Of a DNA stretch of 64,000 nucleotides, positions 1,763 to 13,365 are shown in pieces; positions within the stretch are counted from its first letter, which is position 1; each line of letters opens with the position of its first letter. The notes beneath the pieces are model-generated. The model was not told where the DNA came from, did no database searches, and saw only the letters and a program-made list of their open reading frames with translations. The stretch is from Escherichia phage FL31. Made by a program: the position numbers and the translations under genes. Where the stretch lies: the sequence record PP400782. One strand, 5' to 3'.

Positions 1763-2044
1763 CTATTTTTCTGAAGCGCCTGAAATATATTTTTCAAGAC
1801 GCTGTTTCATCAACGAGCCGTTCTTAGCGATTTCTTCCGGTTTATCGCACATACGCAACAATGCTTCAAGCTTAACGATATCACTGGTGCGCTCAAATTT
1901 GCGAGTATCTATCTTACTAGCAAGTTCAGAAATACGTGCTAATAGACTTTCGGCTTCAACCAAAGCTGCACCTAGCTTAGTTGCAAATGTGTCAGTAGCT
2001 TCGTTAAGAATAGATTCCGATAAAAATTCACTATATGTTTTCAT
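1763..2044 (-). CDS. CTS-bearing internal protein (93 aa) in the ipII/ipIII position between e and denV
   Basis: Starts [10 protein letters not shown] at ATG 2042-2044, overlapping the e stop (ATGA); track start is an upstream in-frame ATG. Confidence 0.55.
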
Positions 2045-2529
2045 ATATACGCTTTCCAAGTTCCTGTTTTAAATGTTGAGATTACGCGTTTCGCGCGATT
2101 AGGTGTCTGACGATACCATTTAGATTGGGCTAGATTTACTGCCGCTTCGTCCCAACGTTTCTGTTGAAGCATACGAAGAGAATTAGTAAAACCGGCGACG
2201 CCTGCTACACCCATTTGGAAGACCATATTGACCAATGCACAACGACGAACCGCATCTAAAAAATCATATACCGGTTTAAGTTTAGCATTACCCAAGATTC
2301 CGCGAACGGCTTTATCAACGTCTTCATTAAATAGCTTTTCAGCCTCATCAAGGGTAATTGTACCGTTGCATTTACGACCGATCATTCTGTCAAGTTCAGC
2401 TTTAGCTACGGCTAAAGACGGGTTCTTTGTTACCAAATGGCCTATGCCAATCGTCCAAAAGCCTTCAGTGTCTTTGTATAAAGTCAGTCTAAGACCTTCG
2501 TCATTACGAAGCATTTCAAATATATTCAT
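2041..2529 (-). CDS. e: Lysozyme (endolysin, glycoside hydrolase family 24)
   Basis: MNIFEMLR...GIGHL...; near-identical to T4 lysozyme as recalled; start trimmed to ATG 2527-2529 with RBS GGGAGGTA. Confidence 0.95.
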
Positions 2530-2563
2530 AATACCTCCCACGTTTATAGGAGGTATTTATTAC

Positions 2564-3022
2564 TTATAGGAGGGTAGTGAGCACCTTATATAATGATTTG
2601 CCCATTACATATTCCCATTGAGAAGGTTTAATTAAAGCGAATGCATCAAATTCAGGAATCTGTCGTCCGTCTGGGAATGTATGATAGGAATTACAAACAC
2701 TGTTTCTGAATTGCTCGTGCTCTACAGGGATGGTATATTGGAACAGATGAATATTCTTATTGTCTGAGTAATGATGTTCACCTAGGTCTTTCAGGAAGGC
2801 AGGGTCATATTGTGTAAACCCAGTTTCTTCTTCGCATTCACGAATAGCGGCTTCAATAGGAGATTCGCCAGGTTCGACACGGCCTTTAGGAATATCCCAC
2901 CGATGAGCTAAAGAACCTTTAGGACGAGAACCAGTTACACGGCCCATGAATAATTCTTTATCTTCGGTAAGGAAAATAATACCAGCTGATAGTTCTTTCA
3001 CTTTATTTTTCTTACTCATCAT
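2564..3022 (-). CDS. nudE: Nudix hydrolase NudE
   Basis: Nudix box GRVEPGESPIEAAIRECEEETG; position immediately after e as T4 e.1; ATG 3020-3022 overlaps upstream stop (ATGA). Confidence 0.85.
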   Translation of the reverse strand: MMSKKNKVKELSAGIIFLTEDKELFMGRVTGSRPKGSLAHRWDIPKGRVEPGESPIEAAIRECEEETGFTQYDPAFLKDLGEHHYSDNKNIHLFQYTIPVEHEQFRNSVCNSYHTFPDGRQIPEFDAFALIKPSQWEYVMGKSLYKVLTTLL

Positions 3023-3417
3023 CTCAAATTCCTGCATTCGGTGATAAAACGTTCAACTTCATTATTCTTGGCTTTTATCTTGTCTTTACGTTCCTGTAAA
3101 CTACTTTTAACAAGATTAATAATGATGCCTACAGTACCTCCACCAATAATACCACCAATAATACTTACGATAGTAGATGCTAATAAGATAGCGATAATAT
3201 CTAGTATAGCAAAGGCACTTACTTTAGTACTAAAAAACCACACTGACGGTACAAATATAATCCATCCTGTTATCCATTGACACTTATTGAAAAACTTTTC
3301 AAGCTCAGCTTGAGTTGTTCGTATTACTTCATCGATAGGTTGATATCCATTAATGTATCTGTTCACGATAATACCTGCTGGCTGGTTGATTTTAAATTCT
3401 TGGCAAATATGTTTCAC
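3019..3417 (-). CDS. Hypothetical membrane protein (C-terminal hydrophobic, Gly-rich segment)
   Basis: 132-aa ORF with no ATG anywhere in frame; only possible start is GTG at 3415-3417 with in-frame TAG directly upstream; weak RBS. Confidence 0.4.
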   Translation of the reverse strand: MKHICQEFKINQPAGIIVNRYINGYQPIDEVIRTTQAELEKFFNKCQWITGWIIFVPSVWFFSTKVSAFAILDIIAILLASTIVSIIGGIIGGGTVGIIINLVKSSLQERKDKIKAKNNEVERFITECRNLR

Positions 3418-3499
3418 TAAGTAGGATGGACATCCTGTCCAATCTACTGAATAATACGAAATACCTTCGTTGCATTAGACCAATATGTTTTGTTAATCA

Positions 3500-4186
3500 T
3501 TACCAGCCTTCCATAGGGAATTCCAGATAAACTTGAGCGTTGACACGAATTTCATTGGTAATCTTTTTAACTCGGTCTGTATTACGAGATACACGTCCAA
3601 ACCAACGCCATCCGTTACTAATTGCACGAGAACCAGTGTGCCATGTTTGCCAATCAAATTGAAGAAGAGTACGGTCTGGAGCTTCCCATTTCTCTAGTTC
3701 GCCTTTTTCGATTTTTTCGAGGACTTCTTTGTGCCACTGGCGATAGATAAGTTCGCCATCAGGAATCTGACTGAACTCTGCAGTTCCTGTTGCAAAATGA
3801 GTAGGACACACATCAGCGTTAACAAGACCAAGAATATGTTCAGACAAATAGCGAGGATTGTCATAGTCAGGTTGTCCTGCAGTAATAAAGTGTTGACCAA
3901 CTGGAATATCAGGGCGTGGAACATCGTCATGGTGATATCCAGGAATAGCAGGGTACCAGCCAGGCATCAGCATGTGGACTCGTGAATCAAATACAACCTG
4001 GTCGGTGTTCCAATCATCCGGCAAGTTCATGATGAAGCTGCGAGTAATAGGACCGCCGTTATTATAAGCAAATTCTAAACTACAGTTGAAGAACATAGGC
4101 TCGTTCTTGATTTTATCATTAGAAATACCGCCGGCAAAACCACCTACTGCACGAGCTTGACTATTAAACACTTTAGAACTATTCAT
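3500..4186 (-). CDS. Hypothetical protein (228 aa)
   Basis: ATG 4184-4186; long ORF in early block; His/Asp-rich motif GYHHDDVP; no family recognised. Confidence 0.55.
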   Translation of the reverse strand: MNSSKVFNSQARAVGGFAGGISNDKIKNEPMFFNCSLEFAYNNGGPITRSFIMNLPDDWNTDQVVFDSRVHMLMPGWYPAIPGYHHDDVPRPDIPVGQHFITAGQPDYDNPRYLSEHILGLVNADVCPTHFATGTAEFSQIPDGELIYRQWHKEVLEKIEKGELEKWEAPDRTLLQFDWQTWHTGSRAISNGWRWFGRVSRNTDRVKKITNEIRVNAQVYLEFPMEGW

Positions 4187-4187
4187 A

Positions 4188-4493
4188 TTATTTTCCTCGA
4201 CATTCTTTAATGAAATTTTCTAGATTGGTAGATTCAATAGCTTTTTTACGAGCTTCTGCGTGTTCTTCTTCGGTCAATTTATGTTTATAATTGACCCAGA
4301 CATTATGGTCGAAACTAGTCGTGGCATATAATAACAAAGCTCCGACGAATAATAAAAACGGTGATAAGAATATACAACCAGGCACACCATCCATACTGTA
4401 AGCCTTTTGTAATACTGCAACAGAAAGAGTTGCGTAAAAAAGTGATGCAAATATTGTTAAAAGACCAATTCGGTTGGTTTCGCCTAATTTCAT
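4188..4493 (-). CDS. Hypothetical small membrane protein (two predicted TM helices)
   Basis: ATG 4491-4493 preceded by GAGGAG RBS and palindromic early promoter. Confidence 0.55.
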   Translation of the reverse strand: MKLGETNRIGLLTIFASLFYATLSVAVLQKAYSMDGVPGCIFLSPFLLFVGALLLYATTSFDHNVWVNYKHKLTEEEHAEARKKAIESTNLENFIKECRGK

Positions 4494-4513
4494 AATATTC
4501 TCCTCATGTTTTG

Positions 4514-4550
4514 GTAGGACTACTATAACATAGTCCTATAATTGTGTAAA
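4514..4550 (-). promoter_or_regulatory. Early promoter with stem-loop (TAGGACT..AGTCCTA around -10 TATAGT)
   Basis: Minus strand GTTTACACAATTATAGGACTATGTTATAGTAGTCCTACC. Confidence 0.55.
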
Positions 4551-4563
4551 CAGTTTTGCGAAA

Positions 4564-5520
4564 TTATTTGAAAGGTTTTACCATATGGAAATTTTGTTTG
4601 AAACGTTTGACGTAATCGTCATGTCCTAAGCTTTGGTACATACTTACTACTTTGCTGTAGTTTTCCCAGGCGTATTCACGGAACCAACCGGAGGTGATGC
4701 TTGTACAGACCTTTTCCAATGCCGTCATAAAACTGGCTTCAGGGTTAATTTTAAAGTCATTAGGAATCTGAGAACGTTCTAATGCTAATACACATGATTC
4801 TTCATATACACCGGCCAATTTGACCATTTCCGGTAATGATTCGAACTTCTCGCGTGAGGTCATGACTTCAGAACCATCTTTCATGTAAAATGTATACGCT
4901 GGACGGTCTGTTAGTGCAATGGCTTCATGAATAGTATCATGGTCATATGTATAGATGTCATCTTTAAAGAATGCGCTTTTAGAAGTGTCAAGAACCGGGT
5001 GAGCATAATTCAAGGTTTCTTTCTGGCGTTTCAGCATAATTTCAGTAAGTTCATCGTTCAGTGTAACACCTTTACCACGAAGATACTGAATATGGTTCAT
5101 AGTCTTTAAAAAGAATGGATTATTTTTCTTGAAACGATGAGACATCTTAATTGCAAGACACATCTCAGGAGTTGCCCAGTAAAACCCGTTAAAACGATCT
5201 TTAGTCAAATTTTTCTTGGCGTATTTTAAAAGGTCATAAGAAGACGTGAAATCTTCAGGAGTGAGTTCACCGACTAATTCACGGACATTAGTGATTGCCG
5301 GAACAATATATGCTTCAAAATGAGTTTCGCGTCCATTATGGAAGCATTTGAAAACTTGGACATCAGGGTTATCTTGGTGAACATATACACCCATCATTTG
5401 ATTTTTGAATGCATTCCAAGAACCTTGGTCCGCAATAAAGTCCCAATCACTATTTTTAATAGCGCTAGAATCAATAAGACCGTGATAGTGAAGTGCACGA
5501 GAACCAATAACTAACATCAT
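4564..5520 (-). CDS. Hypothetical protein (318 aa), possible nucleotidyltransferase-like N-terminus
   Basis: ATG 5518-5520; N-terminal IGSRALHYHG...DWDF loosely resembles G[GS]...DxD; no confident family. Confidence 0.55.
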   Translation of the reverse strand: MMLVIGSRALHYHGLIDSSAIKNSDWDFIADQGSWNAFKNQMMGVYVHQDNPDVQVFKCFHNGRETHFEAYIVPAITNVRELVGELTPEDFTSSYDLLKYAKKNLTKDRFNGFYWATPEMCLAIKMSHRFKKNNPFFLKTMNHIQYLRGKGVTLNDELTEIMLKRQKETLNYAHPVLDTSKSAFFKDDIYTYDHDTIHEAIALTDRPAYTFYMKDGSEVMTSREKFESLPEMVKLAGVYEESCVLALERSQIPNDFKINPEASFMTALEKVCTSITSGWFREYAWENYSKVVSMYQSLGHDDYVKRFKQNFHMVKPFK

Positions 5521-5548
5521 AATATTTTCCTCGGATTAATTCATTAAC

Positions 5549-5800
5549 TTAAATTTCACGACATGCGATATTATATTCATCCCAGAGGTCATCGTGTGAA
5601 GCCTCTACTAATGGAACGATTGTACCATTTATGTCTTCATTATAAGGGCAAATTGTACAATGTGCATCTTCGAATCGGATGCCTTTGTGTTCAGATTTTT
5701 TATAACGCATATCGAATATCTTTGCAAACTTTTCACGAGTAATGGTTTTACCAACCACTTCGGTTCCGATACTTTCGTAATAAATCATTGTGGACTCCAT
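5549..5800 (-). CDS. Hypothetical protein (83 aa)
   Basis: ATG 5798-5800; palindromic early promoter upstream (5817-5846). Confidence 0.5.
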   Translation of the reverse strand: MESTMIYYESIGTEVVGKTITREKFAKIFDMRYKKSEHKGIRFEDAHCTICPYNEDINGTIVPLVEASHDDLWDEYNIACREI

Positions 5801-5808
5801 TTAATTTG

Positions 5809-5846
5809 ATAGGACTACTATAACATAGCCCTATCTTGTTGTAAAC
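5809..5846 (-). promoter_or_regulatory. Early promoter with stem-loop, same family
   Basis: ATAGGACT..AGCCCTAT arms (one mismatch) around TATAGT; GTTTAC at 5841-5846. Confidence 0.5.
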
Positions 5847-5851
5847 TGTTT

Positions 5852-6049
5852 TTAGCAAGAATAACTAGATGATACCCAGCCTTGAACAGTAATACTATTG
5901 TGGGATAATGAGATCGCGTCCTGGAGATTCAGACCTGCGTTATCTTCAATCCATAATGTAACTTCTTCGCGTTCTTCTGTTGCAATTTGGAACAGGTTTT
6001 CTAGAGCAGCTACTGCGGTACGTACAGCACAATCTAATTCACGAGACAT
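5852..6049 (-). CDS. Small acidic protein, paralogue 1 of tandem triplet ending WVSSSYSC
   Basis: 65 aa; ATG 6047-6049 with RBS TAAGGAAACC; C-terminal GWVSSSYSC shared with two upstream paralogues. Confidence 0.5.
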   Translation of the reverse strand: MSRELDCAVRTAVAALENLFQIATEEREEVTLWIEDNAGLNLQDAISLSHNSITVQGWVSSSYSC

Positions 6050-6058
6050 ATGGTTTCC

Positions 6059-6331
6059 TTAGCAAGTGTGAGAAGATGCAACCCAACCACCAGTTTCGAG
6101 GCTCAGGTTGTAGTCATATTGGTAAACGTCCGCCCATTCAGCATAGCCGTTTTTTGTACAACGTTCAAGATCGGCTTTAAGATGTCCGGGTGAATGATAG
6201 GTTCCACCCATACCATAAGCTGGGTACAAGTTGAATGTTGTGTTTTGTTTATCAGCAATTTCTTTGGCAGCCTCAATAGCTGCATAGATTTTTGCTACAG
6301 CTTCGGCCAGTTCGGTTTGTTCTTTAGACAT
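6059..6331 (-). CDS. Small acidic protein, paralogue 2 of tandem triplet ending WVASSHTC
   Basis: 90 aa; ATG 6329-6331 with RBS TAAGGAATC; Ala-rich N-terminal helix; C-terminus GGWVASSHTC. Confidence 0.55.
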   Translation of the reverse strand: MSKEQTELAEAVAKIYAAIEAAKEIADKQNTTFNLYPAYGMGGTYHSPGHLKADLERCTKNGYAEWADVYQYDYNLSLETGGWVASSHTC

Positions 6332-6340
6332 AATGATTCC

Positions 6341-6646
6341 TTAGCACAACGCAGAAGACGAAACCCAAGCACCTTCAGTAATAACGTATCCATTACCTTC
6401 ACGCTTAACATCGCCGCCATTATTTTCAATTTCATCTTTCATCCACTGGGATACGATTTCACCCTTAGGATAATAAGTACGACCGCTACCATAATCACCT
6501 ACAGAAAATGATACGGCATATTGGTCTGCGATCTTTGTTGCTTCTTCTTCGATACGTTCAGCTTGATTCAGAAGTTTATAAATTGCATCTGAAGCGGATT
6601 TGGCATCATTAAACTCTGGTACTTTAATTTCAATAATCTTACTCAT
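6341..6646 (-). CDS. Small acidic protein, paralogue 3 of tandem triplet ending WVSSSALC
   Basis: 101 aa; ATG 6644-6646; early promoter GTTTAC-N18-TATAAT at 6706-6735; C-terminus GAWVSSSALC. Confidence 0.55.
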   Translation of the reverse strand: MSKIIEIKVPEFNDAKSASDAIYKLLNQAERIEEEATKIADQYAVSFSVGDYGSGRTYYPKGEIVSQWMKDEIENNGGDVKREGNGYVITEGAWVSSSALC

Positions 6647-6744
6647 TTTCTACATTCCTTAATAAAGTTTTCGATTGTTTCATTTTCACGTCTAGCTAGG
6701 AGTTCATTATAACTAATCATTTGAGAAGCGTAAACAGCATAATT

Positions 6745-7137
6745 TCAGTTGAGGCTTTTGCATCTTATTTCCTTAACGAATTCCATAGCTTCTTCATATT
6801 CATACTTTTTAACAGCTTCATCATACTGAGCTTGGGCTTTTGCGCACTGAACTTTCCATTCTCTTAATCTGGCTCTGTGATGACGTCCTTGGTACCAATA
6901 TCCCATCCAGTTAATAGGCATTAATAAAAACGGTATAATAAGTGGTGCGACGAACATTAATGAAAATGCTGCATCAGACGATATAACTTCACTAGAATCT
7001 AAAACAGCTCCTATAATCATAAAGATTAAAAATGCTAAAGCTAAAATAGGGCCAAATAATACTTCATTTGGGATTAATTTACGCTTGTATTCATACGCCC
7101 AGGGCTTAATTGGCATGTATAGGGTTGGCTTTGACAT
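6745..7137 (-). CDS. Hypothetical membrane protein (2 TM helices, basic C-terminal tail)
   Basis: Trimmed to ATG 7135-7137 (MSKPTLYM...); ORF-track start is TTG. Confidence 0.45.
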   Translation of the reverse strand: MSKPTLYMPIKPWAYEYKRKLIPNEVLFGPILALAFLIFMIIGAVLDSSEVISSDAAFSLMFVAPLIIPFLLMPINWMGYWYQGRHHRARLREWKVQCAKAQAQYDEAVKKYEYEEAMEFVKEIRCKSLN

Positions 7138-7708
7138 ATTCTCTACATTCCATAATAAATTGCTCAAGGATTAAATTGTTAGTGAAATTAGGACTAACAA
7201 CCATAGTTTCATAAAGCGCATCAATAGCACTTAAAGCATCAGCTCTTTTAAGCAAAGGCTTGCCTTCATACATAGTTTCAGAATCGACGATTAACGTAAA
7301 GTAATATTTTTTATTATCGACTAGAACTTCTGTATCGATATAAAACATATTAGACCTTAAAAGCTTATCTCTAAAACCATAATAATCTTCAGAGCGTTCG
7401 CTGATATATTCCCATTCAGTGTTTAAACAACAAACAGACCATGTAGGAGCAACGAAATCAGTGAATCTAATATCATGGTCTGCAACTAGTTTAGCAATAG
7501 CTCCGATATCATGAATCATAATACCTGGGGCTAATAAAGATTTTCTGTTATGGCTAGCCGTTTTCTCGGTGGTCTCATAAGAAGCCGACCAGTACCATTT
7601 ACGACCGGTTGCGGCATATCGTAATGAATCAACTAAAGACGTAGGTGGATTTACCTTATTTCGGAACTCTTCGAACATTGAGTCAATATCATTATTTTGG
7701 TTTCGCAT
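7106..7708 (-). CDS. Hypothetical protein (200 aa)
   Basis: Trimmed to ATG 7706-7708 with RBS AAAGGAG; track start is TTG. Confidence 0.55.
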   Translation of the reverse strand: MRNQNNDIDSMFEEFRNKVNPPTSLVDSLRYAATGRKWYWSASYETTEKTASHNRKSLLAPGIMIHDIGAIAKLVADHDIRFTDFVAPTWSVCCLNTEWEYISERSEDYYGFRDKLLRSNMFYIDTEVLVDNKKYYFTLIVDSETMYEGKPLLKRADALSAIDALYETMVVSPNFTNNLILEQFIMECREYVKANPIHAN

Positions 7709-7731
7709 GTTAACTCCTTTATTATCCAAAA

Positions 7732-7749
7732 GGAGGACCGGAGTCCTCC
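7732..7749 (-). terminator. Hairpin plus T-run after ORF 7758-8351
   Basis: Minus strand GGAGGAC-TCCG-GTCCTCC then TTTTGG. Confidence 0.5.
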
Positions 7750-7757
7750 GTATTATT

Positions 7758-8351
7758 TTATTTCAAAGAGTTAATATATTCTTGTACATCAGCAGAAGTG
7801 GTTTCGACACCGACCGGAGTGCCATTGAATGTTTCGACACGAGTCAGAGTGTCTTCGATATCAACCTTAGTCAGTGCAGCGATTTCAATTACATCATCGG
7901 CCGTAGAGATACCAAGGGCATTGGCTGCTCGAGTTTCACGAATGTATTCGAGTTTGATTGCCAGGTTCTGACGAGCATCGTCAAGTTCAACCACCTTACG
8001 AGCAATTTCAATTCGCATAGCGGCATACCCGTCAGCTTTTGTATTAAGTTGTTCGGCAGTTCGACGATACAGAAGACCAAGCTTAGCATGCATGGTAACA
8101 TCTTGTCCTTCGGCCAGGAGCTTACGAATTTCACGTTCCTTAGAAGCGGCTTGCTTGTTCTTTTCATTAACAAGTTCGCGAATACGTTTTTCTTCATTAA
8201 TAGATTTAACAGAAGCCGTTTTTAGTTCTTTGATTTGGGTAATCAACTTATCTGCAGCTGCGTTATACTGTTCTTCAACAGTCAGATTTTTAGCCATAGC
8301 AGTACCCAGTTTAGTGCGGATGAATTCAACAAGTTTCTTCAGTGTGTTCAT
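7758..8351 (-). CDS. Hypothetical coiled-coil protein (197 aa), faint PspA/IM30-like character
   Basis: Trimmed to ATG 8349-8351; heptad-rich Lys/Glu/Ala/Arg composition; hairpin terminator directly downstream. Confidence 0.5.
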
Positions 8352-8421
8352 ATTATTACCTTTCAATTGGTGGTTTATTATCCAACGAGAGCATTATACT
8401 CTGCTCTCAAGAGTTTGTAAA

Positions 8422-8649
8422 TTATTTTTTAATCAAATTGACATAAAACTTGGCGTCTTCGGGGTGCATGCCTTCGCAGTATTCTTCAACCATGAACTTC
8501 TTAATAGCTTCATAAGGACCACTCAGATTAAGCTCAGTTGTCCAGAACTTGGAATCTTGGGCTGAATCGATACGAACTTCAGGGTGACGGTTGCGAATAA
8601 CTTCTTCGGTGTATTCATAATCAACGACATCAATACTAACTGTAGCCAT
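8422..8649 (-). CDS. Hypothetical protein (75 aa)
   Basis: ATG 8647-8649; GAGGAAAA RBS; early promoter TTTACA-N17-TATAGT at 8680-8708. Confidence 0.5.
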   Translation of the reverse strand: MATVSIDVVDYEYTEEVIRNRHPEVRIDSAQDSKFWTTELNLSGPYEAIKKFMVEEYCEGMHPEDAKFYVNLIKK

Positions 8650-8697
8650 TTTGTTTTCCTCTTGATTTGATAGGAGACTACTATAACATAAACTTAC

Positions 8698-8862
8698 TTA
8701 GATGTAAATTATTTCAACGTCACCTTTAGCTGCTTTATAACCTTCAGCCCAAGATACAACAGAGTTTTTATCTGAGGATTCAAATTCAGGCATTGGACTT
8801 TCACCAATATTCACACAGTATGTTTCTTCATTTTCATCGAACCAAATAATTAAAGTAGTCAT
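8698..8862 (-). CDS. Small ORF (54 aa) below ORF-track cutoff, driven by the duplicated 47-bp cassette
   Basis: ATG 8860-8862; MTTLIIWFDENEETYCVNIGESPMPEF...; promoter, GAGGAG RBS and first codons identical to 45012-45058. Confidence 0.4.
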   Translation of the reverse strand: MTTLIIWFDENEETYCVNIGESPMPEFESSDKNSVVSWAEGYKAAKGDVEIIYI

Positions 8863-8902
8863 TTTGTTTACTCCTCTGTAGTTGATAAGTCTATAGTATC
8901 AC
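8856..8902 (-). repeat. 47-bp exact direct repeat, copy A (early promoter -10, 5'UTR, RBS, ATG and first codons)
   Basis: TAGTCATTTTGTTTACTCCTCTGTAGTTGATAAGTCTATAGTATCAC read on the plus strand; identical at 45012-45058. Confidence 0.85.
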
Positions 8903-8930
8903 CATCCTTGGTGCTTGTACATCATTATTT

Positions 8931-9236
8931 TTAATTTTTCCAACTTAACAACTTGTAGTGTCCTTCATTCATACGTGGTTTATCCCAAGAAATACTAATA
9001 TATGATTCGCTGTCAATAGAAGTCGCCGGGTTTTTCTCTACCGTAAGACCTTCACTTTCCAGCCATTCAATAGTATTTGCGCATAAATCAGAAGAACACC
9101 TAATCGGAAACCGGCAAGATTTTTCACCTTTAGCTGCAGTGTTATACATCTTTTCTAAAATACGCTTTTGCACGTTTTTAAAAATAGTTTCAGCAGATTC
9201 TTCAGATTTTTTATTCAGTTCAGTGTAAAGACTCAT
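8931..9236 (-). CDS. Hypothetical protein (101 aa)
   Basis: ATG 9234-9236; GAGGAG RBS; early promoter GTTTAC-N17-TACTAT at 9265-9293. Confidence 0.5.
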   Translation of the reverse strand: MSLYTELNKKSEESAETIFKNVQKRILEKMYNTAAKGEKSCRFPIRCSSDLCANTIEWLESEGLTVEKNPATSIDSESYISISWDKPRMNEGHYKLLSWKN

Positions 9237-9323
9237 AATATTCTCCTCATGTTTTGATAGGTCTATAGTAACACATCTAGGGAAGAAGTAAACAACTTTT
9301 TCAGTAAGTTATAGACCCCCTAA

Positions 9324-9339
9324 AGGGGACCGAAGTCCC
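9324..9339 (-). terminator. UUCG-tetraloop hairpin after CTS gene 9346-9972
   Basis: Minus strand GGGGAC-TTCG-GTCCCC immediately after the stop. Confidence 0.45.
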
Positions 9340-9345
9340 CATTCT

Positions 9346-9972
9346 TTACTTACGAGTTTTTGCATACTGAGCAGCGTCAGCAGCCAAACGACCTGCCTGA
9401 CGAAGTTTTTCTTTAATCGCATCGTGAAGTGGTTGAGTGTACTTCAAACCTTCGATAGTCAAATAAAGACGATAAAGGTCCGGGGTATCAAGGTTGTTGA
9501 TATGTTGGCCATTACGAAGAATATTGAATTCACGAACGAGTGAAGATGTATCGGATTCAATATCACGAACAAGCGAAGATAGTTGTTTATATTTTTTTTC
9601 CAGACTAGAAGTATCAAACTTAAGAGCAGGAGCTTTAGGAGTTGCTTTTACTTCAGGCTTAGGCTCAGGTTTTGCTATTGCTTTAGGGGTCGCAGGTTTA
9701 GGAATGGAAGGAGTAGGTTTTACTTTAGGCGAACCCGATTTAGCAGAAACACCACCACTAACAATATCTTTGAATGCTTTAGAAGCTCTGTAATATTCTT
9801 TTTGGCTGGAAGTGTCGATACCGTACATGGCTTGAACGTTTTTGAAAAACTCTGTACTAGTTTTTGTACCAGAAATAGCATCGTAAGCAGCTTGCCATTT
9901 CTCTTTTGTCATACGTACACCGGCTTCGGTGATTACTTCCGTTTCGGCTAAAAATTCATTAAAAGTATACAT
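9346..9972 (-). CDS. CTS-bearing capsid-packaged protein candidate (208 aa) with Pro/Lys-rich linker
   Basis: Trimmed to ATG 9970-9972 (MYTFNEFLAE...); RBS TAAGGA; minus-strand TATAAATA at 10008-10015; linker PKVKPTPSIPKPATPKAIAKPEPKPEVKATPKAP. Confidence 0.6.
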   Translation of the reverse strand: MYTFNEFLAETEVITEAGVRMTKEKWQAAYDAISGTKTSTEFFKNVQAMYGIDTSSQKEYYRASKAFKDIVSGGVSAKSGSPKVKPTPSIPKPATPKAIAKPEPKPEVKATPKAPALKFDTSSLEKKYKQLSSLVRDIESDTSSLVREFNILRNGQHINNLDTPDLYRLYLTIEGLKYTQPLHDAIKEKLRQAGRLAADAAQYAKTRK

Positions 9973-10007
9973 CAATGGTCCTTAGAAAGTAGGTTTATTG
10001 TTTACTA

Positions 10008-10015
10008 TATTTATA
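10008..10015 (-). promoter_or_regulatory. Late promoter TATAAATA upstream of CTS protein 9346-9972
   Basis: Minus strand reads TGTATAAATATAG about 36 nt before the ATG, directly after hairpin plus T-run. Confidence 0.5.
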
Positions 10016-10021
10016 CAAAAA

Positions 10022-10045
10022 AGCCCCAACCTTTCGGAAGGGGCT
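10022..10045 (-). terminator. Hairpin plus T-run terminator ending the tRNA/structured-RNA transcript
   Basis: Minus strand AGCCCC..GGGGCT followed by TTTTTTG. Confidence 0.55.
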
Positions 10046-10345
10046 ATATACCTTGTCGGGGTTCCACCTGCTAAGGCAAGTGTTTGTACGAAACGCCGGG
10101 ATTCGAACCCGGTTATTAAGTAGTTGACGCTACTCAATATTTTTAAAAGGCCATATCTCGACCATATCCGAACGTTCCGTCAAAAACGCTACTCGGCTTA
10201 CGGCAAAGATATTTCCTCGAATCGATAATTCGGTGCGCCGTTTCTGCTGTGATATAAGGGGGCATTAACAAAACATAAAGATTTATTAATGCCAGTCCTT
10301 ACTCAGGGAACATCAGTCCGACGACTTACCGGTAGCGACCCGGCT
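10046..10345 (-). ncRNA. Possible stable structured RNA(s), tRNA-like T-arm element
   Basis: No ORF; minus strand contains CCGGGTTCGAATCCCGG (perfect T-arm) but no cloverleaf could be built; position matches where T4 encodes small stable RNAs (recall). Confidence 0.25.
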
Positions 10346-10347
10346 TC

Positions 10348-10692
10348 TTATTTTGGCATATCATCAATTTGCTCTCGACGCCGACGCCATAGATTAATCG
10401 CTTCATAAACACATTCTGCGTTTGGTATATGACGGCAATAATATAATGATTCGCGTTTCTGGAATCGATGTTGCAATGGGATTTCGTTTAAAAGGTCTTT
10501 ACGGTCAAAGTATTCAAAACTAGTTAACCCGGAACGGTTTTTAATGAACTTCCAATGACCAAATTCATTTTGAACATAGATGTAATCTGCATGTTGGTAT
10601 AACAAATTAATCAATCGGTCTGAAATAACTGTATCATGTTCGTTAAAATAAAACGTTAAATCATGAACTACTAAGTAAACATTACCTTTCAT
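10348..10692 (-). CDS. Hypothetical protein (114 aa) within the tRNA region
   Basis: Trimmed to ATG 10690-10692 with RBS GAGGAAA; track TTG start would overlap tRNA-Arg. Confidence 0.5.
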   Translation of the reverse strand: MKGNVYLVVHDLTFYFNEHDTVISDRLINLLYQHADYIYVQNEFGHWKFIKNRSGLTSFEYFDRKDLLNEIPLQHRFQKRESLYYCRHIPNAECVYEAINLWRRRREQIDDMPK

Positions 10693-10710
10693 ATTTTCCT
10701 CACTTAAAAT

Positions 10711-10787
<77 letters not shown>

Positions 10788-10887
10788 ATGATGCGGCTTT
10801 GGGTGTTTCAGTGTTACTCGTTTGTAGGTTCTACTTTTAACCCTTATTCGAACAACTTACCTACCTAAGAGCGTACTCACCGCGAAT

Positions 10888-10962
10888 TGGTGGCCCTGGC
10901 TGGTTTCGATCCAGCTACCTATCAGTTATGAGCTGACAGCTCTCCCATTGAGCTACAGGGCC
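10888..10962 (-). tRNA. tRNA with CAU anticodon (Met, or Ile if lysidine-modified as in T4)
   Basis: Minus strand: acceptor GGCCCTG/CAGGGCC, D-arm GCTC-AATGGGA-GAGC, anticodon arm GTCAG-CTCATAA-CTGAT, T-arm GCTGG-ATCGAAA-CCAGC, encoded ACCA. Confidence 0.8.
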
Positions 10963-11058
10963 TAAATAACTTTCTATTATGAAAGGCACTTGAGGGAGCA
11001 CCTTTGGTAATAGAGGGTAGATTAATAATAACACATAATTCTTAAAGCAAATTACGTT

Positions 11059-11349
11059 TTACCGTACCATATTAATGTAGTTATATTCAATGCAACGTAA
11101 TTTCAAAGGGTTCTTGAAAATATCATATTCAAGAGGGCCTTTTTCTGTTTCAATAAAGAAATCAAAGTTAACTGTGTTAAATTTAACGTCTTCACAGAGT
11201 AATTTAACTTGTGAAGATGAACGGTCGATATAAACCTTTTCAACCTCAAAGATAGTCAGAATACCGTAGTCATTAACCAGTGCTTTAGCTGCACGTTGGT
11301 CGCTTTCATATCCGTTCTCAATGGACGATACTTTAGCATAAAGAATCAT
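11059..11349 (-). CDS. Hypothetical protein (96 aa)
   Basis: ATG 11347-11349 overlapping upstream stop (ATGA). Confidence 0.5.
   Translation of the reverse strand: MILYAKVSSIENGYESDQRAAKALVNDYGILTIFEVEKVYIDRSSSQVKLLCEDVKFNTVNFDFFIETEKGPLEYDIFKNPLKLRCIEYNYINMVR

Positions 11350-12679: not shown

Positions 12680-13365
<686 letters not shown>

Follow-up and report, generated by a model that had tools for sequence, protein, structure and literature searches.

What fills the interval between nudE and the tRNA genes of Escherichia phage FL31, which is about twice as long as in T4, and did this phage acquire its additional genes on its own account? The stretch analysed here, called the window below, consists of 64,000 nucleotides of sequence record PP400782. 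The block in question covers positions 3019 to 9236, that is 6,218 bp, with 14 minus-strand open reading frames (ORFs) and a coding density of 90.4%. The list of ORFs and a tRNA scan give a T4-type layout: denV, the e lysozyme gene (2041-2541) and nudE (2564-3022), then small minus-strand ORFs, then tRNA-Arg(UCU) and tRNA-Met(CAU) at 10711-10962, at the far end of the variable block. The 9-kb query formed by positions 2000-11000 was compared by megablast with 50,697 phage records; 914 of them matched, and 127 covered at least 80% of it. The best match, with 97.9% identity and 100% query cover, is the Mosigvirus Escherichia phage vB_EcoM_G2469, and the window is therefore assigned to an RB69-type phage. 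We consider it probable that the block is a hyperplastic region, located between nudE and the tRNA genes of a T4-like phage of RB69 type (Mosigvirus), and that it houses a linked pair made of small proteins and a nucleotidyltransferase (NTase).

The difference in size is genuine. When the same end points are used in each genome (the start codon of nudE and the first position alignable to the rnaC region of T4), the window has 6,990 bp between them, T4 3,334 bp and RB69 7,890 bp, which makes the interval of the window 2.1 times as long as that of T4. A sequence-only reading of this DNA had proposed a block roughly twice the size of a T4 counterpart put at about 3.5 kb, densely filled with minus-strand ORFs, and it was right on all three points (the T4 nudE-to-rnaC interval is 3,417 bp, and e.2-e.8 alone is 2,972 bp). 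The excess over T4 consists of seven genes that lie as a cassette of 3,147 bp between e.2 and e.4 (3500-6646), together with the replacement of e.7 and e.8. Orthology was mapped with tblastn, each ORF being compared with G2469, moskry, RB69 and the T4 region, as well as with T4 positions 1-76,000 and 120,001-168,903. In these T4 segments no match was found for o228, o101a, o318, o83, o65, o90, o101b, o54, o101c and o209, nine of which lie within 3019-9236; T4 e.7 and e.8 are absent from the block. The view of a hyperplastic T4-type region carrying content without detectable T4 counterpart is thereby borne out, and since ten ORFs have no T4 match, the one-to-one orthology with T4 e.2-e.8 that had been named as its refutation is not what is seen. 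The same reading had found none of the proteins recognisable, which did not hold: 5 of the 14 ORFs have an orthologue or a paralogue in T4 (e.2, e.4, e.5, e.6, frd.3), with e.4, e.5 and e.6 as orthologues and o75 as a paralogue of frd.3. The novelty that it implied did not stand either. A deposited genome matches the block at 97.9% identity, and in RB69 (NC_004928) each gene of this interval has its annotation (e.2, RB69ORF132c-139c, e.3-e.6, frd.3, ORF145c-150c), the seven cassette genes o228, o101a, o318, o83, o65, o90 and o101b being RB69ORF132c-139c. As a finding, the block is already known: near-identical regions have been deposited many times, and hyperplastic regions with the promoter/stem-loop cassettes named PeSLs have been described. 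The size as stated changes nothing, the enlarged RB69-type block having been in GenBank since the RB69 genome, and the principle that clusters of early novel ORFs are shuffled at such cassettes was published between 2006 and 2014 (PMC1524935, PMC2839356, PMC4122927).

The pair concerns o318, the 318-aa ORF (4564-5520) that had been singled out, and o65, o90 and o101b, in which a paralogue triplet had been seen. Both are real, the triplet being confirmed by pairwise E-values (5e-6 for o90 vs o101b, 1e-3 for o65 vs o90) and by a common C-terminal motif. The three are small acidic proteins which share an N-terminal helix and carry a tail, G-W-V-[SA]-S-S-x-x-C, directly before the stop codon; translated in all six frames, the window contains no further copy of W-V-[SA]-S-S-x-x-C. 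An exhaustive profile search collected at least 526 clusters of relatives at 50% identity, with the tail consensus G-W-x-S-S-S-x-x-C. Among the best 145 clusters, 137 end in Cys, and these have W at -8 in 136 cases, S at -5 in all 137 and S at -4 in 134; an internal Y-G-x-G motif is present in 136 of the best 145, and the median pI is 4.5. The family is in no Pfam family, its profile gave nothing significant against all PDB chains, and no kinship of these proteins to known antitoxins appeared in Pfam, PDB or PADLOC. Two or three W-x-[SAP]-S units are found in the acidic linker of 31 of the best 145 members, as if the tail were repeated internally.

Linkage between this family and o318 was analysed in both directions. 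The forward set consisted of 80 viral contigs retrieved through o318. The hidden Markov model (HMM) of the small-protein family matched in 66 of these loci (132 genes, 1 to 4 per locus), and 5 more were recognised by the tail pattern, making 71 of 80. All 132 HMM matches lie upstream of the o318 family gene and on the same strand, none downstream or antisense. The 47 loci which share no other block gene with the window behave alike, 34 (+5) of them carrying the small-protein family. For the reverse set, built on a narrower alignment, the internal motif YGMGGTY alone was used for retrieval and gave 42 contigs. Two end too early to tell; in each of the other 40, a gene of the o318 family follows downstream in the same orientation, and 21 of the 40 are additional to the forward set. 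When eight distant representatives were looked up by exact protein, an o318-family neighbour was present in 7 of the 7 informative cases, one of them in a T7-like context.

The phages concerned are diverse: the pair was met in T4-like phages, Phapecoctavirus, Otagovirus, a contig with a T7-type RNA polymerase and viral contigs of 355-390 kb. A family member stands just upstream of the o318 homologue in four annotated distant phages, namely Aeromonas phage 31, a Klebsiella Karamvirus, a Phapecoctavirus and an Otagovirus, and in the last two the small-protein gene is the only other gene in common with the window. A search of 185,579 species genomes gave only 5 matches to the o318 family, all on contigs of metagenome-assembled genomes and likely phage sequence in bins, so the family is apparently restricted to phages. 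On the contig encoding a T7-type single-subunit RNA polymerase and DNA polymerase A, the two genes of the pair overlap by 38 nt, and a nucleoside 2-deoxyribosyltransferase-like gene comes next.

We next consider the enzyme itself. o318 (DUF7277+DUF7275) is predicted to be an NTase of the Pol-beta fold, closest to the MenT toxins. Its predicted structure has an alpha/beta NTase core, and the signature G-S...D-x-D...E is intact; among 72 relatives, whose N-terminal domains average 39% identity, its residues are kept almost throughout (G6 in 72, S7 in 70, D25 and D27 in 71 each, E69 in 70 with D in two more). The C-terminal domain is more conserved than this core, with 64% vs 39% identity. The nearest solved folds are MenT1, TglT/MenT3 and MenT4, with ANT(2'') and LnuA scoring almost as well. 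At the level of sequence, DUF7277 and DUF7275 were the only Pfam families returned at E ≤ 0.1, with no DUF1814/AbiEii; the o318 profile found no match in PDB, nor o318 in PADLOC, and it was not placed in the MenT/AbiEii family. The MenT/AbiEii toxins (e.g. PDB 8an4, 6j7n, 6y56) resemble o318 in having an NTase core followed by a helical domain and a small upstream partner gene. They differ in that o318 shows no membership by sequence and has a much larger, highly conserved DUF7275 C-terminal domain, and in that its partners form a distinct family, with a Cys-terminated tail and often several tandem copies, that looks phage-restricted. Nucleotidyltransferases that modify a small protein partner are known from GlnD-PII uridylylation and from the MNT-HEPN type VII toxin-antitoxin system. 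There too a Pol-beta-fold enzyme is coupled to a small protein with conserved hydroxyl residues; the comparison is one of arrangement and not of demonstrated homology. Literature searches found no paper on DUF7275, DUF7277, RB69ORF134c or phrog_2141, and those on MenT and phage and on Mosigvirus accessory genes gave nothing on these genes. A preprint describing an early-protein screen of AV110 was set aside, as it covers T4-homologous proteins only and its hit adjoins motA, not this block.

The other large protein of the cassette, o228 (228 aa), is predicted to be an Fe(II)/2-oxoglutarate dioxygenase, PhyH-like, with a double-stranded beta-helix fold. A candidate H-x-D...H triad (H85/H86-D87/D88, H183), plus R194/R198 as candidates for the 2-oxoglutarate-binding Arg, is invariant and plausibly spaced. 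No Pfam family was found for o228 at E ≤ 0.1 and none in NCBIfam at E ≤ 0.01; one UniRef label among its relatives reads "phytanoyl-CoA dioxygenase family". The predicted fold is shared with dioxygenases of PhyH/EctD/EasH type, as the invariant candidate triad and Arg residues would be; o228 differs from these enzymes by the lack of a Pfam PhyH match and by its length, shorter than most structural matches. Like o318, it has more than 1,000 homologues in many genera. More generally, ten block proteins scanned against PADLOC and NCBIfam gave no meaningful match, and sequence searches of all PDB chains with o318, o228, e.5, e.6 and o209 returned nothing significant.

These results suggest the following picture. 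The T4 e.x set persists in varied states of decay, with a frameshift in e.2, no more than a 3′ stub of e.3, and intact copies of e.4, e.5 and e.6; e.7 and e.8 are replaced by the frd.3 paralogue, o54, o101c and the internal-protein-like o209. The genes read leftward, probably as small operons, behind six or seven sigma-70-type early-promoter motifs, mostly in copies of a PeSL-like cassette. As for the pair, the NTase might transfer a nucleotide to the Ser-rich, Cys-terminated tail of the small proteins; alternatively, the tail might occupy and control the active site of the NTase, the enzyme then acting on another target such as tRNA. The pair may serve early host takeover or counter-defence. 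That a MenT-like NTase with DUF7275 nucleotidylates, cyclises or is gated by the tail of 1 to 4 tandem small acidic proteins is a tentative proposal, to which we give clearly less than even chances. What is left after this proposal and the two rival readings of the pair given below goes to a co-regulation of the small proteins and the NTase without direct interaction.

Several observations weigh against this picture. In nine of the 80 NTase loci the small-protein partner is lacking. Where present, it often lies 0.5-1 kb from the enzyme gene (median 0.5-0.8 kb) and is separated from it by other small genes, so that the two are linked without always being adjacent. o228 accompanies o318 in 23 of the 80 loci, in the T4-like subset only and always downstream, and the seven-gene cassette is therefore not one conserved operon; a functional coupling of o228 with o318 as a general rule was rejected on this count. 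Since o83 is upstream of the NTase in only 12 loci and o228 is as scarce as just said, what is conserved as a unit is the NTase with its small protein or proteins, and the cassette as a whole is not. For o228, the metal triad is a candidate by sequence invariance and spacing. The assignment of the block genes as early is inferred from promoter motifs and from synteny with T4 and RB69. Two of the indel breakpoints described below, at 3019-3025 and at 6735/6747 (within the e.3 coding sequence), are not at PeSLs. Lastly, the absence of T4 homologues applies to the T4 segments searched, on either side of the late region (76-120 kb).

Other explanations were weighed for the pair. o318 and the triplet could form a toxin-regulator module of MenAT/AbiE type, in which o318 nucleotidylates a host tRNA or other nucleic acid and the acidic proteins restrain or time it. 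Its closest solved folds are those of MenT1, TglT/MenT3 and MenT4, and a small acidic gene upstream of the NTase, sometimes with a 38-nt overlap, recalls antitoxin-toxin operons; in addition, regions of novel ORFs are under-represented in plasmid libraries (Nolan et al., PMC1524935). However, neither DUF1814/AbiEii nor any PADLOC model was matched by sequence, up to four tandem "antitoxins" would be unusual, and the small-molecule enzymes ANT(2'') and LnuA score almost equally. We also know of no counterpart of the invariant terminal Cys in MenA or AbiEi, which counts against a module of this type, and we hold it to be rather unlikely. The tail suggests yet another role for the cassette, its S-x-x-C spacing being that of AviCys (aminovinyl-cysteine) or lanthionine rings, as in epidermin. 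The seven genes would then act in one pathway, for example one resembling those for ribosomally synthesised and post-translationally modified peptides (RiPPs) or one that modifies protein tails, with o318 activating the tail Ser, the Cys closing the ring and o228 tailoring the product. Tandem short genes with an invariant tail like a modification site, upstream of an enzyme whose C-terminal domain is better conserved than its NTase core (64% vs 39%), would agree with this, as would the adjacent and always downstream o228 in the T4-like phages (23/80 loci). We nevertheless find it improbable: o228 is missing from 57 of the 80 loci and from all four non-syntenic annotated neighbourhoods, no known RiPP maturase or recognition-element family was found among the block proteins in Pfam or NCBIfam, the likeness being confined to the order of the genes, and the small proteins, with 65-135 aa and a structured-looking core YGMGGTYYP, are unlike typical leader/core peptides.

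For the block as a whole, an origin in line with the sequence-only reading is that the extra 3 kb or so was inserted recently and in this lineage only, bringing new modules for host takeover or counter-defence into a T4-like backbone. The ten ORFs without detectable T4 homologue fit such an origin, as do the whole-gene indels between relatives (ORF130c, a 66-aa ORF of moskry, e.3, and o209 vs e.8/148c/149c) and the proximity of internal-protein-type genes and of a 57B homologue at 12680-13135. Against it stand the conservation of the cassette at 94-100% in RB69, G2469 and moskry and the 127 records covering at least 80% of the 9-kb query. Moreover, o318 and its partner lie between e.6 and nudE in a Karamvirus, and 28 of the 80 o318 loci have nudE and e downstream. 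The >1,000 homologues each of o228 and o318, an unremarkable GC content and the lack of a PADLOC match are further points against it, and a recent insertion seems to us a poor candidate. Because of the Karamvirus arrangement and of the 28 loci with nudE and e downstream, it may rather be T4 that represents a reduced state than this phage an expanded one. That decaying genes and mechanical ORF calls, more than functional content, account for the length of the block has in its favour the frameshift in e.2, the stub of e.3, the split of o101b in RB69, and ORF calls at 9982-10271 which correspond to RNA genes. This is largely refuted, and we regard it as very improbable, given the coding density of 90.4%, the presence of every ORF in an existing PHROG of no assigned function at E ≤ 1e-19, and the two largest cassette proteins, which fold confidently and have dozens of invariant residues.

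What is new, then, is of two kinds: predictions at the level of the fold, as a dioxygenase and a nucleotidyltransferase, for two proteins that are among the largest conserved unknowns in many T4-like phages, and a tie, seen both ways and across unrelated phage backbones, between the NTase and the many small proteins whose tail ends in Cys. If the proposal is true, DUF7275 and DUF7277 would gain a function, and phage early biology a new enzyme-partner system. This could be a new kind of protein-tail modification, or a toxin-regulator circuit, used early in infection. The features of the block and of its borders are collected in Table 1.

Table 1. Genes, RNA genes and candidate regulatory elements from nudE to rnaD (positions in the window)
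Feature	Position	Strand	Evidence or remark
nudE, Nudix hydrolase, conserved downstream flank	2564..3022	-	64% identity to T4 nudE, 99-100% to RB69/G2469
e.2 homologue, disrupted	3019..3510	-	o132 = intact C-terminal 132 codons (3019-3417), two transmembrane (TM) segments, tail ...FITECRNLR
o228 = RB69ORF132c, predicted Fe(II)/2-oxoglutarate dioxygenase, PhyH/EctD-like	3500..4186	-	
o101a = RB69ORF133c, two-TM mini-protein	4188..4493	-	tail ...ENFIKECRGK; PHROG 9798; PHROG 2203 at E 1.3e-4
PeSL-type cassette upstream of o101a	4490..4566	-	GTTTAC-18 nt-TATAGT, -10 box in stem TAGGACTA...TAGTCCTA; families D1/D2
o318 = RB69ORF134c, DUF7277+DUF7275, predicted Pol-beta-fold nucleotidyltransferase	4564..5520	-	
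o83 = RB69ORF135c, small acidic protein between triplet and o318	5549..5800	-	PHROG 3723
PeSL-type cassette upstream of o83	5785..5861	-	motif, hairpin and repeat scans
Triplet o65 (5852-6049), o90 (6059-6331), o101b (6341-6646)	5852..6646	-	9-nt spacers
e.3 3′ remnant, about 30 codons	6647..6744	-	tail ...ENFIKECRK; frame translation matches RB69 e.3 C-terminus
e.4 orthologue (o140), two-TM	6745..7137	-	tail ...FVKEIRCKSLN; 55% identity to T4 e.4, 96% to RB69
e.5 orthologue (o207), soluble	7106..7708	-	...FIMECREYV... near C-terminus; 47% identity to T4; PHROG 2607
Intrinsic-terminator-like hairpin between e.6 and e.5	7732..7749	-	GGAGGACTCCGGTCCTCC then TTTT; G2469 annotates a terminator there
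e.6 orthologue (o202), coiled-coil candidate of the sequence-only reading	7758..8351	-	88% identity to T4; PHROG 1203
PeSL-type cassette upstream of e.6	8349..8436	-	TTTACA-17 nt-TATAAT, -10 box in stem GAGAGCA...TGCTCTC
frd.3 paralogue (o75)	8422..8649	-	Pfam Phage_FRD3 E 9e-38; 56% identity to T4 146578-146802
Promoter cassette upstream of frd.3	8647..8724	-	-35 box within o54 3′ end; families D2/D3
o54 = RB69ORF145c	8698..8862	-	100% identity to RB69; PHROG 5461
o101c = RB69ORF146c	8931..9236	-	99% identity to RB69; PHROG 18312
PeSL-type cassette upstream of o101c, together with the hairpin of the next row	9233..9345	-	families D1/D3/D4; RB69 breakpoint 9250
Terminator-like hairpin after o209	9340-9325	-	GGGGACTTCGGTCCCC; hairpin scan
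o209, basic protein, beyond the span 3019-9236 of the sequence-only reading	9346..9972	-	PHROG 2280; absent from RB69 and T4
rnaC/rnaD stable-RNA homologues, true end of the variable block	10013..10353	-	91% identity to T4 rnaC-rnaD

Regulatory motifs were then counted. Each ORF had been credited with its own GTTTAC-N17/18-TAtAgT promoter. This proved an overstatement: the strict motif GTTTAC-N17/18-TATA[AG]T is found three times in the block (4551-4522, 5846-5817, 6735-6706), and with looser motifs and a sigma-70 model, sites at 8421-8393, 8708-8680 and 9293-9265 are gained, along with a degenerate one upstream of o54, so that the 14 ORFs have 6 to 7 promoter-like sites between them. For seven ORFs there is no room for a promoter, since they touch or overlap the gene upstream. 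One of the strict sites, GTTTAC-18 nt-TATAAT at 6735-6706, falls inside the e.3 coding remnant. A generic sigma-70 scan of the region showed no enrichment, with 35 sites vs 27.3 +/- 6.0 in shuffled sequences. The hairpins that had been reported are indeed present in most intergenic gaps of the block.

A unit of about 65 nt is repeated at 4490-4566, 5785-5861, 8647-8724, 8860-8940 and 9233-9310, with a related unit at 8349-8436; copies within the repeat families (D1-D4 and D8) are 66-94% identical. The order of elements is an AT-rich lead, (G)TTTAC(A), 17-18 nt, TA(T/C)(A/T)(A/G)T inside a stem-loop, a spacer, GAGG and ATG. PeSLs have been defined with the T4/PST consensus TTTACW-N17-TAYWAT, their commonest form having a stem that overlaps the -10 box (PMC2839356, PMC4122927), and the repeated cassettes of the window fit this description by their motifs. 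As in the PeSLs of Arbiol et al. 2010 (PMC2839356) and Comeau et al. 2014 (PMC4122927), they are repeated upstream of ORFans and have a promoter motif of the T4/PST type and a stem-loop over the -10 box followed by a Shine-Dalgarno sequence and a start codon. Those papers did not cover RB69-type phages ("RB69" occurs 0 times in PMC4122927); of the indel breakpoints between relatives, 2 of 4 are at PeSLs here. The block displays the features of a PeSL hyperplastic region, namely a cluster of small early-strand ORFs that varies between close relatives and a repeated promoter and stem-loop motif. Nolan et al. 2006 had already noted that the novel ORFs of RB69 cluster between conserved blocks, often with their own early promoters (PMC1524935). 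From the promoter and terminator motifs, the likely operons are o101c; o54; frd.3; e.6; e.5-e.4; the triplet; o83-o318; and o101a-o228-e.2-nudE.

Several membrane mini-proteins had been announced, and three are real (o132, o101a and o140), with two hydrophobic segments each, at residues 9-27 and 35-53 for o101a. They are part of a set which shares a C-terminal motif, F-[IV]-x-[ED]-[CI]-R. The six-frame translation of the 64-kb window contains five copies of it, all in the block and on the minus strand: 3031-3048 (e.2), 4197-4214 (o101a), 6649-6666 (e.3 remnant), 6763-6780 (e.4) and 7142-7159 (e.5). All five are at most 11 residues from the stop. The e.2, o101a, e.3 and e.4 products are, or were, two-TM proteins, and e.5 is soluble; e.2 and o101a are further linked through PHROG 2203, and o101a appears to be a paralogue of the C-terminal half of e.2. 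We read the motif as the probable mark of paralogous small membrane proteins with a common cytoplasmic tail, also present on the soluble e.5. One pair of copies (6645-6666 vs 7138-7159) is 91% identical at the DNA level. A recombination site at the DNA level was considered and rejected, synonymous differences between copies favouring a protein motif.

Comparison among the window, G2469, moskry and RB69 revealed four indel differences. RB69ORF130c is missing from the window at 3019-3025, where it is bounded by a 7-nt GAGATGA repeat with overlapping stop and start codons; this gene was gained or lost cleanly, without a PeSL. An extra 66-aa ORF of moskry is inserted exactly at a -35 box (breakpoint 4545-4551). 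e.3 is cut to its last 30 codons or so, RB69 being 250 bp longer here (breakpoint 6735/6747). Finally, o209 replaces RB69 e.8, ORF148c and ORF149c, with one joint at 9250 within a promoter cassette. The breakpoints at 4545-4551 and 9250 are the two located at PeSL cassettes.

The N-terminal domain of e.2 is frameshifted near codon 11 by a deletion near 3460, which takes 10 bp from the gene in the window and 11 bp from that of G2469; moskry and RB69 are intact. What remains, o132, is 95% identical to residues 32-163 of RB69 e.2 and falls in PHROG 2203 ("membrane protein", E 1e-36). RB69 e.2 and T4 e.2 match in BLASTP over the N-terminal 55 aa or so only (30% identity, E 8e-8). In T4, the unannotated 161-nt gap between e.2 and nudE (67491-67651) encodes a frame-broken continuation of e.2, reaching ...NNFITECRK at the nudE start. 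Because the broken C-terminus is encoded there, T4 e.2 (102 aa) is a truncated form of the 163-aa RB69 gene.

With respect to RB69, the nudE-tRNA region thus has the same gene set and order, 94-100% protein identity and the same tRNAs, Arg-UCU and Met-CAU; the window differs by the loss of ORF130c and of most of e.3, by the 10-bp e.2 deletion, by o209 in place of e.8, ORF148c and ORF149c, and by an intact o101b, which RB69 splits into ORF138c and ORF139c. With T4 e.2-e.8, the flanks (e, nudE ... rnaC, rnaD, tRNAs) and the orthologous e.4, e.5 and e.6 are shared, e.2 being weakly related through its N-terminal domain, whereas T4 lacks the seven-gene cassette, o54, o101c and o209 and has intact e.3, e.7 and e.8. 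The frd.3 gene of T4 sits elsewhere, beside frd. No sequence relative of e.6 was found in PDB. GC content varies between 0.33 and 0.44 across the block, an unremarkable composition. A mild difference is visible between o228 and the triplet (3500-4250, 5750-6500), at 0.41-0.44, and the flanking membrane-protein genes, at 0.33-0.38.

At the tRNA end, the rnaC/rnaD homologues are the best-conserved DNA of the neighbourhood. An Rfam scan of 2500-11200 returned the two tRNAs only, rnaC and rnaD not being in Rfam. The mechanical ORFs at 9982-10137 and 10143-10271 belong to this RNA region and are not genes for protein. Next to it, o209 starts with M-Y-T-F-N-E-F-L-A-E, which aligns position by position with the N-termini of six other ORFs of the window, starting at 620, 960, 1284, 2044, 12228 and 12601. 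We take the pattern M-K-T-Y-x-E-F-I-x-E to be the capsid-targeting signal of the T4 internal head proteins (IPI-III). Since o209, with an N-terminus of this type, replaces RB69 e.8, ORF148c and ORF149c, this position has the look of an exchange point for genes of injected proteins. Further out, on the minus strand at 12680-13135, lies a homologue of T4 gene 57B, annotated as 57B in RB69. T4 57B is Acb1, the nuclease directed against the CBASS (cyclic oligonucleotide-based antiphage signalling system) defence, and a known counter-defence gene therefore lies about 3 kb beyond the block.

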